From: Rhodanobacteraceae bacterium ZG21-1
Lineage (GTDB): Bacteria; Pseudomonadota; Gammaproteobacteria; Xanthomonadales; Rhodanobacteraceae
Reading direction: 5' to 3'
NCBI GenBank assembly: GCA_021390615.1
Contig: JAJEJU010000023.1
Span: 356,686 to 420,685 of the forward strand
DNA length: 64,000 nucleotides
The position numbers were made by a program, and so were the translations under genes. Positions 150 to 41,292 of this stretch are shown here, one piece after another; the first letter of the stretch is position 1, and every line of letters starts with the position of its first letter. The notes under the pieces are model-generated. The model had not been told where the DNA came from. It did not search any database and worked only from the letters and a program-made list of their open reading frames with translations.

Positions 150-226
150 TGGTGGCTATGGGTGGACTCGAACCACCGACCCCAGCATTATGAGTGCTGT
201 GCTCTAACCGGCTGAGCTACATAGCC
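150..226 (-). tRNA. tRNA-Met (elongator type, anticodon CAT)
   Basis: The reverse complement reads GGCTATGTAGCTCAGCCGGTTAGAGCACAGCACTCATAATGCTGGGGTCGGTGGTTCGAGTCCACCCATAGCCACCA. It has a cloverleaf with a CAT anticodon loop, a GTTCGAGTC T-arm and an encoded CCA. The overall sequence closely resembles elongator tRNA-Met. Confidence 0.85.
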
Positions 227-3871: not shown

Positions 3872-4846
3872 ATGCAGCGGACCACGCAGCCTGAGACCAA
3901 CACCTTCGCCGGACTCAGCCTGATCCTGGATCGCGTGGCCGAGCGCCGCGACGAGCAGGACTGGGTGCAGGGCCAGATCGAATCGCCCGATGCCCGCTAC
4001 CTGCTGATCGACAGCGCCGGCGACACTTGGCTGCTGCGCGACGGCAGCGGGCTGCGCTGGCTCGATCCGACCGAACGGCAGCTGCTGGCGGACACGCCGG
4101 CCACCTTGCTCGGGCTGATCGGAACGCAGCCGCACTTCCTGCTGACGGTCGACCAGGCGCCGGTCGCCGAGGCGCTGGATTTCAAGCTCGACGCCGTGCG
4201 CGCCAGCCTGCGCAGTGCCGGCCTGCAGCTGCCGACGGCCGAGGCAGGCCTGTTCGCCTACGCCAAGGGCCTGGCCCACTGGCAGCGCGAAACCCGCCAC
4301 TGCGCCTACTGCGGCGCGCCGCTGAGCCTGGTCGCCTCCGGCCATCGCGCGCAGTGCAGCGACGCGAGCTGCGGCCGCATGCATTTCCCGCGTACCGACG
4401 CGGCGATCATCGTGATCGTCGAGCACGAGGGCGCATGCCTGCTCGGACGTCAGGCCGGCTGGCCGAAGGGGCGCTATTCCACCCTGGCCGGCTTCGTCGA
4501 GCCGGGCGAATCGCTGGAAGATGCGGTGCGCCGCGAGGTGGCCGAAGAATCCGGCGTCATCGTCGACCAGGTGCACTATCACTCCTCCCAGCCCTGGCCG
4601 ATGCCGGCCTCGCTGATGGTCGGCTTCACCGCCACCGCCCGCGGGCCGGAGATCCGGCTGCGCGACCGCGAGCTGGAGGATGCGCGCTGGTTCACCCCGC
4701 AGCAGATCGTCGACGGGCTGGCCGACGGCAGTTTCGCGCCGCCGACCGCGCTGTCGGTGTCCTACCGCCTGCTCTCGCACTGGCTGCGCGAGCGCGCCCA
4801 GCTCGAGCTCGACGCGCTGGTCGCTGCCGCACGCAAGACCGCATAG
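3872..4846 (+). CDS. nudC: NAD+ diphosphatase (NADH pyrophosphatase, Nudix)
   Basis: It has a central zinc ribbon (CAYCGAP...CSDASCGRMHFPR) followed by a Nudix box (GFVEPGESLEDAVRREVAEESG) and SQPWPMP, the canonical NudC architecture. Confidence 0.85.
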   Translation: MQRTTQPETNTFAGLSLILDRVAERRDEQDWVQGQIESPDARYLLIDSAGDTWLLRDGSGLRWLDPTERQLLADTPATLLGLIGTQPHFLLTVDQAPVAEALDFKLDAVRASLRSAGLQLPTAEAGLFAYAKGLAHWQRETRHCAYCGAPLSLVASGHRAQCSDASCGRMHFPRTDAAIIVIVEHEGACLLGRQAGWPKGRYSTLAGFVEPGESLEDAVRREVAEESGVIVDQVHYHSSQPWPMPASLMVGFTATARGPEIRLRDRELEDARWFTPQQIVDGLADGSFAPPTALSVSYRLLSHWLRERAQLELDALVAAARKTA

Positions 4847-4892
4847 CCCTCGCACTCCCCTACAATCGACGGACTTCGCCGGAGCCCGTTCC

Positions 4893-5762
4893 ATGGCCGT
4901 CAGCCTGCTCGCCGCCCTCATCGCCCTAGGCCTGCTGCACCTGCGCCCGCAACTCGCGCACTGGCGCGGCGACGGCGGCTTCCGCCAGTGGGTGGCGCAG
5001 CTGCGCGACACCAGCGGCCCCGGCCGCGTGCTGCTTACCCTGCTGGTGCCAGTGGCCTTGTGCATGCTGCTGTCCTGGCTGTTCGGGCGGCTGCCGCTGG
5101 GCGACCTGCTGCGGCTGATCTTCGCCCTGGTCGTGCTGCTCTACAGCTTCGGCCCGCACGCCTTCGAAGCCGACCTGGAAGCGATCCTGCGCGCACCGGA
5201 CGAGGTCAGCCGCAGCGCCGCCGCGCAGGCCCTGGGTGAAGACGGCGAGCGGGTGCCCTGGCGCGCCGTCGAACTGGGCGAAGCCACCGCCTATGCCGCG
5301 CTGCGCCGGCGCTTCGGCGTGCTGCTGTGGTTCTTCCTGCTCGGCCCCGCCGGGGCGCTGCTCTATCGCCTGGCGCGGGCACTGGCGCGGGACAGCTCGC
5401 TCGACCTGGACAGCGCGAGCCGCACGCCGGCGCTGCATGTCGCCAACGCGCTGGACTGGCTGCCGGCGCAGCTGATGGTGTTCACCCTGGCCCTGGTCGG
5501 GCACTGGGAGGCCGTGATCGCCGCCTGGCGCCGCTGGCACGACCAGGCGGCGCCGACCAGCTGGTACGGCGAAGGCCCCGGCTTCCTCGGCGCCGCCGCG
5601 CGCGCCGACATCCAGACCGATATCCAGGCCGGCGACGGTTACGCCGAAGAGCGTTGCGACCCGCTGGTGGAACTGCGTCGCCTGCGCGCCGCGCTGCTGC
5701 GCGCTCTGCTGGCGTGGCTCAGCGTGGTGGCGCTGATCGTGCTGTCGGGGTGGATCGGCTAG
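4893..5762 (+). CDS. AmpE-like inner-membrane protein (hypothetical)
   Basis: It is a multi-transmembrane protein (MAVSLLAALIALGLLHL..., LLTLLVPVALCMLLSWLF, LLWFFLLGPAGALLY, C-terminal LLAWLSVVALIVLSGWIG) with the length and topology of the AmpE/COG3725 family. The start was set at the ATG with the hydrophobic N-terminus. Confidence 0.45.
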   Translation: MAVSLLAALIALGLLHLRPQLAHWRGDGGFRQWVAQLRDTSGPGRVLLTLLVPVALCMLLSWLFGRLPLGDLLRLIFALVVLLYSFGPHAFEADLEAILRAPDEVSRSAAAQALGEDGERVPWRAVELGEATAYAALRRRFGVLLWFFLLGPAGALLYRLARALARDSSLDLDSASRTPALHVANALDWLPAQLMVFTLALVGHWEAVIAAWRRWHDQAAPTSWYGEGPGFLGAAARADIQTDIQAGDGYAEERCDPLVELRRLRAALLRALLAWLSVVALIVLSGWIG

Positions 5763-6289
5763 GGCCTTTGGGGGGCGCTTCGCTGGCGCTGGCGCCAGAG
5801 CGAGATTTGCTGGTCGTCGCTTGAAGGCTTCTGTAGGGAGCGCCGTGGTCAGCGGTCAGCCGAAGTCTGCGCGAGGCTTGCTCAAGCTTCGCGGAATGCT
5901 TCCGATCGAGTGGTGGGCTTTCACAAGCTCAGGCTTTGAGGCGCGAGCTTTCGATTGCCTACGGCGCGCTCAAGCCGCTTCTCTTGATTTGATCCACAAT
6001 GTCGCATCAACGGCGACGCATGGATGGATGCTGGCGCAGGCTGGCACTCTAGGCGATTTCACGACTTGGCTCGCCTCCGACCGCAGTAGTCCCTGTGGGA
6101 CAGTAGGCTTTGGGTCTCTGCTTAGGGTCGAGTTATTCGCATCCTGGCTCGCCTCCGGCGGGGTTTCGGTCGCCTCCCGGCGCCCGAGCCACTTTTCTTT
6201 GCTGGCCCACGACGCCGCAGGAGCGGCGGCGAACGGCGCAGCCGGCCCGAAGGGCGGAGGGCAGGATGCCCGGAGTCAAGAAAAGTAGC

Positions 6290-6900
6290 CCAAAGAAATG
6301 GCCTTTGGAGCACGCCGAACATACAAGCCTGAACTGCCAAGCCTTGTTGACGATGGGCGCTCCTCAAGAGGAGCTATTACCGCTACACCGCGATCGCTTG
6401 AGAATTGCATCGAGCACGCCGGAGATACAAGCCCGAACCGCAGCGCTTTGCTGACCAAGGGCGCTCCTCAAGAGGAGCTACTGAGGCTACACCGCGAACG
6501 CTCGATGACTGCGGCGGGGCCAACCCGGCTCGCTACGCATCGCCGGGCCTGGAAGGTCGAGGCAAATACGGAGCGGGATGTCACCGCAAAGCGCATGACG
6601 TTGCGGGCATCCAAATAAGCCCATTTGAATGCGCAATTTTGAATTGCCAACTCCAAATTGCCAAAGCGCCTCTCTTGCGCCAGTTCCCGAGCGATGACGG
6701 TGTAGCCGCAGTAGCTCCTCTTGAGGAGCGCCCTTCGTCCGCAAAGCGTCATCTCACAAGGTCTATCCCCGGCGTGCTCGATGCAGTTCCCGAGCGGCCG
6801 CGGGGTAGCCCCATTAGCTCCTCTTGAGTAGTGCCCTTCGTCGACAAGGCATTGCGGTTCAGGCCTGTATGTTCGGCGTGCTCAACAAGGCCGTTTCTCT
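6290..6900. repeat. Array of about four ~100-bp repeat units (two direct, two inverted) forming a large imperfect palindrome
   Basis: Direct units lie at about 6308-6411 and 6412-6515 (GAGCACGCCGAACATACAAGCC...GGGCGCTCCTCAAGAGGAGCTA...GCTACACCGCGATCGCTTGA). Reverse-complement units lie at about 6683-6779 and 6780-6883. Each unit contains the perfect 16-bp palindrome GCTCCTCAAGAGGAGC. The outer flanks (AAAGAAATGGCCTTT / AAGGCCGTTTCTCTT) are also inverted. Confidence 0.75.
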
Positions 6901-7088
6901 TGGTGACTTCTCTTTGGGCCAGCAAAGAGAAGTCACTCTCGCCGCGGCAGCGGCACGAAACCAAGGCAAGTCCGCGAAGGGGTGACTCCTCTGCGAGCGC
7001 CGCATCACGCCGACGTAGCGCCACCTCACCCAACCCTCATTCGTACCGTTCGCATCCAGCGCGCCAGCGCCAACAAGCAAATGCCCGC

Positions 7089-8981
7089 TCAGGCAAGATC
7101 CCCGCGCAACACGCGCACCCGCGCCTCCAGCGAGGCCGCGCTCACCTGCTCCGGCGCCACCGCAGGGTCCACCACCAGTTCCACGCGGGCGCGGAAGCGG
7201 CGCGGCAGGCGCGCGCGGTGCAGCATGGAGTCGCGGCGGCTCCACACGCTGCCCCACAGGCCGCGCAAGGCCATCGGCACCACCGGCACCGGCCGGCGCG
7301 CCAGGATCTTCTCCACGCCGGGACGGAACGGCGCCACCTCGCCATCCATGGTCAGGCCGCCCTCGGGGAAGATGCACACCACTTCGCCGGCGGCCAGCGC
7401 GGCGTCGATGGCGTCGTAGGCCTGCTGCAGCACGGCGGGGTCTTCTTTCTGGCCGGCAATCGGGATCGCCTTGGCGGTGCGGAACACGAAGCGCAGCAGC
7501 GGGATGTTGAAGATCTTGTAGTACATCACGAAGCGCGCCGGGCGCCGCAGGTTGGCCATCAGCAGCAGCGGGTCCATGAAGCTGACGTGGTTGCACACCA
7601 GCAGCGCCGCGCCCTCTTCCGGCAGGTTGCGCATGCCGTCCACGCGCACCCGGTACAGCACGTTCACCAGCACCCAGGTGATGAAACGCATCAGGAATTC
7701 GGGCACCAGGGTGAAGATGTACACCGCCACCGCCACGTTCAGCAGGGCCGCGCACAGGAAGATCTGCGGCGCGTCCAGGCCGAGCGCGCCGAGACCGAGG
7801 CCGAAGCCGGCGGCCAGGCAGATCAGCACGGCGTTGAGGATGTTGTTGCCGGCGATCACTCGCGACAGCTGCTCGCGCGGCGTGCGCGCCTGCACGTAGG
7901 CGAACAGCGGCACCACGTAGAAGCCGGAGAACACGCCGATCAGGGTGAGGTCGAGCATCACCCGCCAGTTGCCGGCGCCATGCAGGAAGGCCAGCCAGTC
8001 CAGCCCCTGCACGGCGGCATGGCCGTGCCGCGCCAGGTACAGGTCGACGCCGAACGCGGTCAGGCCGAACGCGCCCATCGGCACCAGGCCGATCTCCACG
8101 CGTCGCCCCGACAGGCGCTCGCACAGCAGCGAGCCGATGCCGGTGCCCAGCGAAAACAGGGTCAGCACCAGGGTGTTCACCGAGCCGTCGCCGCCCAGCG
8201 TCTCGCGGGTATAGCCGGGCAGTTGCGCGATCAGCACGGTGCCGAAGAACCAGAACCAGGAGATGCCCAGGATCGCGTTGAACACCGCGTGGTCGCTGCG
8301 GGTGATGCCGAGCACCCGCGAAGTCTCGCTGAACGGGTTCCAGTTGAACTTGAGCTGCGGCGCGGTGGCCGGCGCCGGCGGAATGCGGCGACTGACCAGG
8401 TAGCCCGCGAGCGCCACCGCGATGGTCAGCGCTGCCGACAGCAGCGGGCCGAGCTCGACCTGGCTGTCCTTGAACTTGATCAGCATCAGCGCGCTGCCGG
8501 CGATCATGCCGATCAGGATCGCCAGCTGGGTGCCCATCTCGACCAGGCCGTTGCCGCCGACCAGTTCCTCCGGCTTCAAAGCCTGCGGCAGGATCGCGTA
8601 CTTGATCGGGCCGAACATGGTCGAGTGCAGGCCCATCATCAGCAGCACCAGCAGCAGCAGGCTCACGTGATGGGTGTAGAAGCCGAAGGCCGCCAGCAGC
8701 ATCGCAGCGATCTCGAACAGCTTCACGTAGCGGATGATCCGCGTCTTCTCGTACTTTTCGGCCAGTTGCCCCGCAGTGGCGGAAAACAGGAAGAACGGCA
8801 GGATGAACAGCGCCGGCGCCAGGTTCGTGTAGATCGAAGCGGAACGCTCGCTCAGTCCCATCTGGAACGCCACCAGGGTCAGCATGGCGTTGCGGAACGC
8901 GTTGTCGTTGAAGGCGCCCAGCGCCTGGGTCCAGAAGAACGGGGCGAAGCGCCGGCTGCCGAGCAGTTTGAATTGACTCAT
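7089..8981 (-). CDS. Fusion protein: LplT-like MFS lysophospholipid transporter + lysophospholipid acyltransferase (PlsC-type)
   Basis: The N-terminal ~400 aa form a 12-transmembrane MFS fold (MSQFKLLGSRRFAPFFWTQALGAFNDNAF...). The C-terminal ~200 aa carry the acyltransferase HX4D motif (VCNHVSFMDPLLL) and an FPEGG motif. Codon usage fits the host. Confidence 0.8.
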   Translation of the reverse strand: MSQFKLLGSRRFAPFFWTQALGAFNDNAFRNAMLTLVAFQMGLSERSASIYTNLAPALFILPFFLFSATAGQLAEKYEKTRIIRYVKLFEIAAMLLAAFGFYTHHVSLLLLVLLMMGLHSTMFGPIKYAILPQALKPEELVGGNGLVEMGTQLAILIGMIAGSALMLIKFKDSQVELGPLLSAALTIAVALAGYLVSRRIPPAPATAPQLKFNWNPFSETSRVLGITRSDHAVFNAILGISWFWFFGTVLIAQLPGYTRETLGGDGSVNTLVLTLFSLGTGIGSLLCERLSGRRVEIGLVPMGAFGLTAFGVDLYLARHGHAAVQGLDWLAFLHGAGNWRVMLDLTLIGVFSGFYVVPLFAYVQARTPREQLSRVIAGNNILNAVLICLAAGFGLGLGALGLDAPQIFLCAALLNVAVAVYIFTLVPEFLMRFITWVLVNVLYRVRVDGMRNLPEEGAALLVCNHVSFMDPLLLMANLRRPARFVMYYKIFNIPLLRFVFRTAKAIPIAGQKEDPAVLQQAYDAIDAALAAGEVVCIFPEGGLTMDGEVAPFRPGVEKILARRPVPVVPMALRGLWGSVWSRRDSMLHRARLPRRFRARVELVVDPAVAPEQVSAASLEARVRVLRGDLA

Positions 8982-41216: not shown

Positions 41217-41292
<76 letters not shown>

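Follow-up and report, generated by a model that had tools for sequence, protein, structure and literature searches.

The 1.3-kb gap between two convergent genes at positions 5763-7088 of a 64,000-nucleotide stretch of DNA from Rhodanobacteraceae bacterium ZG21-1 (contig JAJEJU010000023.1; this whole stretch is called the window) is non-coding and is an insertion. The inserted sequence is probably a non-autonomous, non-coding repeat element with structured inverted ends, of the kind of the repetitive extragenic palindromes (REPs), bacterial interspersed mosaic elements (BIMEs) and miniature inverted-repeat transposable elements (MITEs). We assign it to this class because copies of its ends are numerous and intergenic, occur in inverted pairs and as near-identical composites, and vary in their presence at orthologous sites. 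The dispersed part is an end module of ~70 nt (140 nt with an apex insert), and not the 104-bp unit that fills the arms of the element. Judging from covariation among the copies, this module appears to form, on one strand, an H-type pseudoknot together with two hairpins, P1 and P2.

In the model that we propose, each outer end of the element would be one inverted copy of the dispersed module, with the hairpins facing outward, and the 585-bp interior would be lineage-specific cargo in which the 104-bp unit is doubled in each arm around a 165-bp centre. The module would be read on one strand, plus in the right arm and minus in the left. By analogy to REPs, which are thought to be handled by Y1/HUH transposases, the single-stranded fold of the end, as DNA or RNA, may be recognised in trans by an enzyme that copies or moves the element, and the element may persist because its site downstream of two convergent genes tolerates it.

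The gap is an insertion in comparison with relatives

The gap measures 1326 bp (5763-7088) and separates a gene for a CobD/AmpE-like membrane protein from one for a fusion of a major facilitator superfamily (MFS) protein and an acyltransferase. An earlier note on this DNA, made from the sequence alone, had described it as non-coding, and this was borne out: none of its internal open reading frames (ORFs) matched Pfam, and its G+C content is 0.57-0.65 as against 0.70-0.79 in the flanking genes. The acyltransferase protein is 80-84% identical to proteins of Rhodanobacter, Dyella and Frateuria and 91% identical to one metagenomic protein. Spacing of the gene pair is 76 bp in Rhodanobacter sp. (locus L002) and 16 bp in Frateuria sp. 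Soil773 (L003); where the note had allowed for a coding gene here in relatives, their spacer is almost empty. In the 91%-identical relative (L001) the spacing is 669 bp, and an element of the same plan is found there, with a single unit in each arm and the hairpin at both ends. The L001 unit resembles the outer unit of the window beside the hairpin and the inner unit beside the centre. Since it is half outer-like and half inner-like, the simplest history starts from an ancestor with two units per arm: tandem duplication of the 104-bp unit would predate the palindrome, and in the L001 lineage each tandem pair would have collapsed to one hybrid unit by recombination.

The end module is the dispersed part of the element

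Each outer end of the element matches R1, a covariance model that was built from 18 gap-free copies of the end module, and these are exactly the two R1 matches of the 64-kb window. The modules and their parts are:

6164-6303, minus strand (functional strand): left end module; model R1, 65.8 bits, E = 2e-16
6148-6163, minus strand: P0, outermost small hairpin of the left end module, GCTCGCC-TCC-GGCGGGG on the plus strand
6167-6186, minus strand: left P1 hairpin
6188-6201 and ~6279-6289, minus strand: arms of left P2, with the loop at 6202-6207
6210-6278, no strand assigned: G+C-rich insert of 68-69 nt with three small hairpins, at the apex of left P2
6292-6298 (complement), minus strand: left U-rich strand, Y1
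6300-6303, minus strand: left pseudoknot partner GGCC
6889-6960, plus strand (functional strand): right end module; model R1, 80.9 bits, E = 7e-21
6889-6892, plus strand: right pseudoknot strand GGCC
6894-6901, plus strand: right Y1, TTTCTCTT
6903-6916, plus strand: 5' arm of right P2
6917-6922, plus strand: loop of right P2, GGCCAG
6923-6936, plus strand: 3' arm of right P2, with the purine tract AAAGAGAA at 6924-6931
6938-6957, plus strand: right P1 hairpin

The earlier note had placed a clean hairpin with a 13-bp stem at 6907-6940 and had treated it as additional to the repeats. The hairpin exists, but it lies at 6903-6936 and has a 14-bp stem with the 6-nt loop GGCCAG, and the arm end that bears it is not an addition: it is the dispersed, conserved part. 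Its mate in the left arm is the same hairpin with the 68-nt insert at the apex (6188-6289), and nhmmer matched the left module in two pieces, 6153-6209 and 6278-6310. P0 aligns with the GCCCGCCGCAGGCGAGCC block of other copies. A helix that closes the end of Y1 (CUUGG) with CCAAG after P0 is present in the fold of the window and in Rhodanobacter-type copies, but not in Dyella-type copies. The right end module (6889-6960) folds with z = -4.1.

A genome scan with the 18-nt core of the terminal hairpin, in which the loop was fixed as GGCCAG, matched at least 119 stretches, compared with ~17 expected by chance according to our own estimate (~1.2e12 scanned positions divided by 4^18). Among the matches listed were Dyella (dozens of copies in strain OK004), Rhodanobacter, Frateuria, Fulvimonas, Lysobacter, Luteimonas and Marilutibacter, as well as metagenome-assembled genomes (MAGs) of Flavobacterium, Bacteroidia, Patescibacteria, Desulfuromonadales, Eubacteriales and Brevinematales. 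When the window region was compared with these loci by BLAST, coverage was restricted to 6113-6312 and 6838-6962, that is, to the ends. Model R1 gave 165 matches in 100 fetched sources, mostly from Dyella, Rhodanobacter, Frateuria, Lysobacter and Luteimonas, with a few from Flavobacterium, Patescibacteria and other MAGs.

The 104-bp unit behaves differently. Self-BLAST revealed no further copies of it in the 64-kb window, its core had no match in one genome per species from 185,579 species, and the single match in JGI metagenomes was unrelated and due to chance. The unit is common only to the orthologous locus of one close relative, L001. Thus, of the earlier proposal of a REP/MITE-like cluster in which the ~100-bp unit is the dispersed element, the class stands and the choice of unit falls. 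We also considered, and rejected, that the unit is homologous to other members' interiors, as a profile of 15 Rhodanobacter-type interiors matched it only at E = 0.37; the short motifs GGCTTGTA and GCGGnnTAGCC are common to the unit and other interiors, for which we claim no homology. With no significant match to the interior profile or in the genomes, the 104-bp unit is best regarded as lineage-specific cargo.

Copies of the module form head-to-head pairs in intergenic sites

Among 150 non-overlapping R1 matches, 32 pairs were head-to-head, 9 tandem and 2 tail-to-tail; a profile of sequence only gave 29, 35 and 3, respectively. Head-to-head pairs have the conserved hairpins outermost and enclose an interior of 107-651 bp, so that the window element, with 585 bp, is a typical pair. 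These interiors differ completely from lineage to lineage. Where neighbouring genes could be called, 22 copies lay between convergent, 6 between divergent and 29 between co-directional genes, the last divided into 14 in one orientation and 15 in the other, which amounts to no orientation bias. One genome of Dyella marensis contains three composite copies of ~950 bp that are ~95% identical, and no shared target-site duplication is visible at them.

Several pairs of Dyella (L119:5823-6262, L104:1100-1640, L028:7480-7990) consist of two distinct arm types that recur together at several loci and share a central hairpin, GAGGGCTTAAAGC...GCTTTAAGTCCTCAG; in Dyella, what is copied seems to be the pair and not one arm alone. 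In the MAG of Flavobacterium sp. BFFFF2 (L056, L068, L089), modules repeat in direct tandem every 370-590 bp, with upstream modules of two alternative kinds, one bearing a TATAAT box. In these copies a canonical terminator hairpin (GGGCC-AAAAA-GGCCC), followed by UUUCUUUU, has the GGCC strand as its 3' half. Copies in Patescibacteria MAGs were found at L087:3988-4420 and L122:~3121. The former is a head-to-head pair ~1.5 kb from a transfer-messenger RNA (tmRNA) gene, and one of its ends has the variant loop TTCCGG paired with GCCGG. The P1 loops there contain GGA (GGGGC-UGGAA-GCCCC, GGGGC-AGGA-UGCCCC).

The end module appears to fold into a strand-specific pseudoknot

Wobble pairs assign the fold to one strand. 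In P2, 139 G•U pairs fall on one strand versus 2 on the other; P1, with 36 different stem sequences, has 17 G•U pairs on the same strand as the P2 wobbles versus 3 on the other. The wobble position in P2 is shifted in Flavobacterium copies, and a U•G conserved in 75 sequences flips to G•U in two copies of the Luteimonas group. Choosing the strand by minimum free energy gave a mixed result that is confounded by G/U content, and the wobble counts were used instead. All of the structural evidence is covariation among copies that are related and in part redundant. In the model-guided alignment 96.8% of cells were paired compared with 83.0% in shuffles, double changes occurred at 21 of 22 pairs (13 of 14 in P2 alone), and the covariation score was 0.339 as against 0.115, with slid controls at or below 0.091. 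Stem lengths vary in steps that would break a reading frame.

The U-rich tract Y1 lies directly 5' of P2, GGCC precedes Y1, and the P2 loop is GGCCAG. In partner copies with a non-standard loop, the GGCC segment and the loop co-vary. Ten complementary pairings were seen, including GGUC:GACC, GACC:GGUC, UGUC:GACA, GGCU:AGCC and GUGCC:GGCAC, and also GUGGCC:GGCCAC, GGGCC:GGCCC, GUGCCC:GGGCAC and CCGG:CCGG. At least four contiguous Watson-Crick pairs formed with the copy's own loop in 10 of 18 non-standard combinations, compared with 7% when foreign loops were used. This covariation between segment and loop is what leads us to conclude that the end module appears to be a strand-specific H-type pseudoknot with two hairpins. 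In it, the 4-6-nt GGCC segment would pair with the loop of the 14-bp A/U-rich P2, and the G+C-rich hairpin P1 would follow P2.

In an H-type topology loop 1, here Y1, has to follow the deep groove of P2 in the same direction as the purine strand of that helix. Y1 would then lie along that strand in parallel register and form U•A-U and C+•G-C major-groove triples. When the test was restricted to trimmed tracts, the parallel (mirror) register was favoured by 7 of 7 asymmetric stem classes; over the 71 instances of these classes it was at least as good as the antiparallel one in all and better in 42, and the direct register was better in 0. Reciprocal stem classes (AAAGAAAA versus AAAAGAAA, AAAGAGAA versus AAGAGAAA) carry reciprocal Y1 tracts, and Y1 contains CTC in 34 of 34 copies with GAG in the stem versus 6 of 76 otherwise. 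In the right arm of the window, TTTCTCTT (6894-6901) fits AAAGAGAA (6924-6931) at 8 of 8 positions. These data suggest a U•A-U/C+•G-C triple helix on one strand.

Several points weigh against this structure. The alignment behind the pair counts was fitted with the model and so leans towards structure, although the margin is still large. Since the scan fixed the loop GGCCAG, loop variants come only from partner copies. The tracts being almost mirror-symmetric, the lead of the parallel register over a shifted antiparallel one is a single nucleotide in each class, and the two most telling reciprocal classes have one distinct sequence each; in view of the one-nucleotide margin the triple helix is rated likely but unproven. 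In addition, GGCC followed by UUUCUUUGG stands after a weak hairpin in Proteobacteria and after a good one in Flavobacterium, where the GGCC strand also belongs to a terminator-like hairpin with a U-tract that competes with the pseudoknot.

Rfam 15 returned no match up to E = 1 in window positions 5000-8000 and none at gathering score in 15 loci, save unrelated tmRNA and tRNA; at L020 and L119 the only matches were far below gathering score, with E up to 5, and none is credible. A full-text literature search for the sequence strings found no match, and a keyword search on MITEs of Xanthomonadales found nothing relevant. It is tentatively, as one possibility, that we describe the end module as an undescribed phylum-spanning fold, an H-type pseudoknot with 7-9 consecutive triples that may act as the recognition or stability element of a palindromic intergenic family, either as RNA (protecting a 3' end) or as single-stranded DNA (as a transposase substrate).

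The interior is an imperfect palindrome of 104-bp units

Four ~104-bp units, two direct and two inverted and ~80% alike, build with the ends an imperfect palindrome of ~830 bp around the 165-bp centre. The arrangement given in the earlier note, two direct units mirrored by two inverted ones with the outer flanks inverted as well, was recovered by the repeat finder and by self-BLAST. The left direct units (6308-6408 and 6412-6512) are 80% identical and the right ones (6681-6747 and 6784-6850) 82%; as inverted arms, the outer units (6308-6427/6764-6883) are 84% and the inner units (6444-6511/6681-6748) 87% complementary. Self-BLAST aligned 6290-6504 with 6903-6688 (81%, E = 2.8e-44), and the outer flanks 6162-6209 and 6915-6962 are 75% alike in inverted orientation. 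The spacer put at ~170 bp is present and measures 165 bp. The units abut, with a period of 103-104 bp, and stand in both orientations, which sets the region apart, as had been argued, from a CRISPR array, whose direct repeats of 23-50 bp share one orientation and alternate with unique spacers of similar length.

The 16-bp palindrome GCTCCTCAAGAGGAGC was said to be perfect and present in every unit. The motif is there; it is a 7-bp inverted repeat (7+2+7) around a non-palindromic AA/TT, exact in three units (6359, 6463, 6714), carrying two mismatches in the fourth (6817-6832) and broken also in L001. As a single strand, 6138-6966 folds into the expected long hairpin (-521 kcal/mol, z = -24); this strength follows from the inverted repeat and merely restates it. 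Individual 104-bp units fold no better than shuffles (z from -0.1 to -0.7). The remaining features of the locus are:

4680-5762, plus strand: gene for the CobD/AmpE-like membrane protein, left neighbour of the gap
5763-6137, no strand assigned: left non-coding flank, outside the palindrome, with weak, decayed end-module fragments (suggestive only)
6086-6101, plus strand: small palindrome with a GTAG tag, GTAG-TCCC-TGT-GGGA-C; REP-like mini-repeat that occurs once in the window
6308-6411, minus strand: unit 1, outer unit of the left arm, 84% complementary to unit 4
6412-6515, minus strand: unit 2, inner unit of the left arm, 87% complementary to unit 3
6516-6680, no strand assigned: asymmetric centre, 165 bp, lowest G+C, conserved in part in L001
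6681-6783, plus strand: unit 3, inner unit of the right arm, carrying GTAG and CTCCTC-TT-GAGGAG
6784-6883, plus strand: unit 4, outer unit of the right arm, its small palindrome degenerate
6961-7088, no strand assigned: non-coding flank on the right, as far as the MFS-acyltransferase stop codon; no repeats detected
7089-8981, minus strand: gene for the MFS-acyltransferase fusion, right neighbour of the gap

In the left flank, BLAST aligned 5946-5985 with L001 positions 7551-7514 (the 5' half of P1/P2; 82.5%, E = 0.004), and the TTGGCTCGCCTCCG start at 6136-6157 recurs at 6058-6079 (direct repeat D3); model R1 had no match in 5763-6137. Elsewhere, the 64-kb window contains two tRNA-Met (CAT) genes, at 150-226 (minus strand) and 41217-41292 (plus strand).

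Inserts, mini-repeats and an insertion sequence at the module

Throughout the family, inserts are confined to places that are loops or linkers in the proposed fold. The 68-nt insert is ~90% identical across genera; it occupies the same position at the P2 apex in L020 (975-1046) and L104 (7511-7585) and is truncated at the P2 apex of L023 (139-185), while in the Luteimonas copies L008 (3239-3302) and L015 (439-488) it stands between Y1 and P2. The 68-nt insert could be an optional structural domain or a mini-element that prefers the module. GGA loops of the CsrA/RsmA type in it were considered and rejected, being barely above expectation and opposite to the wobble-supported strand.

Other small repeats accompany the module. 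A GTAG mini-palindrome, GTAGTCCCnGTGGGA(C), which is REP/SMAG-like, also occurs in L073:7525-7538, where it is inserted within the P2 stem, L091:6851-6864 and L105:746-759, and the window units carry GTAG with CTCCTC-TT-GAGGAG on the structured strand (for instance at 6709-6728). Hairpins tagged with CGTC (CGTCATCCCGGCGTAGGCCGGGAT, loop GTAG) border the ~950-bp composites of D. marensis (L024:5826-5850 and 6727-6755, with equivalents in L033 and L071) and precede most copies of Dyella sp. OK004, beside many of which there is a second repeat, CCCTCTCCCC-TCC-GGGGAGAGGG-TTGGGGTGAGGG. Two species, D. acidisoli and D. choica, carry an IS30-family insertion sequence (IS) between Y1 and P2, inserted at the very same GTT and pointing in opposite directions (L042:5988-7115; L018 from ~6636). 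Its 369-aa ORF has HTH_38 and rve domains. With inverted repeats of its own (GGCGGAGTCAATCTAGAAGTGCA) and a GTT duplication of 3 bp, it looks like a target-specific IS for which the module is the landing site.

Alternative explanations

The main rival to an inserted repeat element is a pair of divergent structured small RNA (sRNA) genes with promoters in the centre, transcribed leftward and rightward; each RNA would be made up of the units and, behind them, a 3' pseudoknot/triple-helix module that protects it against exonucleases in the way of MALAT1 and the element for nuclear expression (ENE); the end-module family would then be a multi-copy sRNA family and not a selfish repeat. We hold this to be rather unlikely. 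The structured strands do run from the centre outward, head-to-head pairs put a module at both 3' ends, and strong covariation with inserts confined to loops is typical of functional RNAs. The sole sigma-70-like site of the region (6664-6636, minus strand, TTGGCA-17-CAAAAT) is aimed from the centre into the left arm, and the block at this site (TGGCAATyyrAAATTGCrC) is kept in L001; the right arm, however, has no inward promoter-like site, and the count of 1 compares with 0.3 ± 0.5 in shuffles. A sigma-54 promoter in the centre was dismissed because its spacing is off by 2 nt. Flavobacterium copies add an upstream TATAAT box and a canonical hairpin with a U-tract, but this terminator-like hairpin would stop the RNA before P2. 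Furthermore, the units fold like shuffles and are not conserved beyond the locus, pair interiors differ wholly between lineages, unlike those of an sRNA family, and the copies show no orientation bias with respect to neighbouring genes.

A classical MITE, moved by cut and paste through long terminal inverted repeats and a DDE transposase encoded elsewhere, with target-site duplication, would account for head-to-head pairs with conserved ends and a variable interior, for several near-identical composites in one genome and for the preference of the copies for intergenic sites. It is nevertheless improbable: conservation is best in subterminal positions (P2/Y1), with outermost bases that vary from one subfamily to another, the three D. 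marensis copies lack a visible target-site duplication, and strand-specific G•U pairs, the pseudoknot and variation in stem length point to a single-stranded fold and not to a duplex site for a protein. The sole transposase between modules is that of the IS30-family IS, which is inserted into the module, is not bounded by modules and has inverted repeats and a 3-bp duplication of its own. Less probable still is an immobile, locally evolved bidirectional terminator or insulator whose palindrome arose by local duplication and inversion. The position between convergent genes, the long hairpin that read-through RNA could form and the likeness of GGCC plus U-tract to a terminator tail, clear in Flavobacterium, agree with it. 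Yet relatives do with 16-76 bp at the same site, and the ends are a module found in at least 150 other places in many genera and hence did not evolve locally. The structured bidirectional terminator that the earlier note had offered also received no direct support from a consensus scan, in which terminator-like sites were not enriched (3 versus 1.5 ± 1.0 in shuffles) and none fell at the main hairpin. The reading with least to commend it, a decayed pseudogene or remnant of a coding gene, is hardly credible: all frames offer ORFs of 81-155 aa, but none matches Pfam, the period of 103-104 bp is not divisible by three, the site in relatives is empty instead of holding a gene, and G+C is under the coding level. 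Sites of the attC or dif/Xer type, retrons, toxin-antitoxin genes and small ORFs were likewise rejected, as variation in stem length excludes fixed protein sites and reading frames and no reverse-transcriptase or integrase gene was seen nearby. A phage or plasmid origin was rejected too, with only four chance matches in viral contigs and none by BLAST among plasmids, even though a Dyella plasmid (L006) carries one copy.

The reading as an inserted element of the REP/BIME/MITE kind has difficulties of its own. No target-site duplication or exact insertion junction is definable, because the empty sites of the relatives are not alignable, and it is from the distribution of the copies that mobility is deduced. 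Beside the copies stands neither a transposase nor any other recurrent protein family. An HUH/Y1 ORF like that of REP-associated tyrosine transposases (RAYTs) was not found in the window or in ~0.9 Mb of fetched loci, either with a motif expression or, in a weak test, by tblastn with a RAYT sequence. The interior 104-bp units are without detectable relatives.

Relation to known systems and biological meaning

REPs, BIMEs and REP doublets forming hairpins (REPINs) are extragenic palindromes and their inverted doublets, and RAYT Y1 transposases are believed to mobilise them (Ton-Hoang et al. 2012, PMC3333891; Di Nocera et al. 2013, PMC3733652). The end module resembles them in that its many copies are intergenic, mostly downstream of genes (convergent or co-directional) and usually in inverted pairs, which can fold into larger structures and form mosaic clusters with other small repeats. 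As in REPs, its hairpin is strand-specific with a conserved wobble, and GTAG- and CGTC-tagged palindromes are physically associated with it (6086-6101; CGTCATCCCGGCGTAGGCCGGGAT at the ends of Dyella composites). Unlike a REP, the module measures 70-140 nt and not 20-40 nt, its main stem is A/U-rich and not G+C-rich, and its foot has no GTAG or CGTC tag, such tags being found only on the accessory small palindromes. It also differs in the predicted pseudoknot and third-strand tract, in pairs that enclose 107-651 bp of variable sequence, in that no RAYT was found beside any copy and in a conserved core common to several phyla.

Like MITEs, the elements are non-coding, a few hundred bp long, conserved at inverted ends and variable inside, with several near-identical copies per genome; unlike them, conservation is subterminal, no target-site duplication was seen and a single-stranded fold is supported. 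Thus, although high copy number, intergenic position downstream of genes and inverted pairing agree with REPs and BIMEs, and inverted end modules whose outermost bases vary between subfamilies stand where a MITE has its terminal repeats, the strict definition of a REP fails on size, composition and tag, and that of a MITE on target duplication and site of conservation. The element is best called a variant within the REP/BIME/MITE class with newly described structured ends. TIRtrons, long inverted repeats that flank genes for terminal inverted repeat-associated tyrosine transposases (TIRYTs), have two families in Stenotrophomonas maltophilia K279a, according to PMC3733652. As described there, their terminal inverted repeats are like the end module in belonging to the same bacterial order and in being long, partly self-complementary, moderately abundant and arranged in dimers or clusters; no end-module motif string occurs in the text of PMC3733652. 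Unlike TIRtrons, the module copies have no tyrosine-transposase gene that we could see near them. Palindrome-associated transposable elements (PATEs) of the IS200/IS605 type have unlike subterminal hairpins at their two ends, lack inverted ends and, in full-length copies, carry a Y1 transposase or TnpB; the ends studied here are inverted copies of one module, and no ORF family was found associated with them.

In telomerase RNA and in the SAM-II/SAM-V and preQ1-II pseudoknots a U-rich loop 1 runs parallel to the purine strand of stem 2 (PMC7583470), as would Y1 in the end module. MALAT1 contains one or two C+•G-C triples amid U•A-U triples (PMC7583470), and the same embedding of C+•G-C triples is predicted here, as in MALAT1/ENE. 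Known natural triple helices of bacterial RNA comprise 2-5 triples, in riboswitches or group II introns (PMC7583470). Unlike the riboswitch triplexes, which are single-copy and stand upstream of genes, the module is predicted to have 7-9 consecutive triples, is multi-copy, lies downstream of genes in either orientation and may be DNA.

At the level of the locus, the region is ordinary, an inserted and probably selfish repeat with no sign of importance to the flanking genes. The end-module family, with at least 150 copies in the fetched loci, is spread over Rhodanobacteraceae and Lysobacteraceae, with outliers in Flavobacterium, Patescibacteria, Desulfuromonadales and others; it is absent from Rfam and was not found in the literature by sequence. 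If the triple helix is true, the module would be either a bacterial counterpart of the stability elements with a triple helix known from eukaryotes and viruses or a transposon end of a new, structured class, its 7-9 triples would make the longest natural triple helix known in bacteria, and its 72 nt would provide a compact, easily testable model. As a specific target for an IS30-family IS and a docking site for mini-repeats, the end module makes a useful marker of plasticity in the genomes of these soil bacteria.

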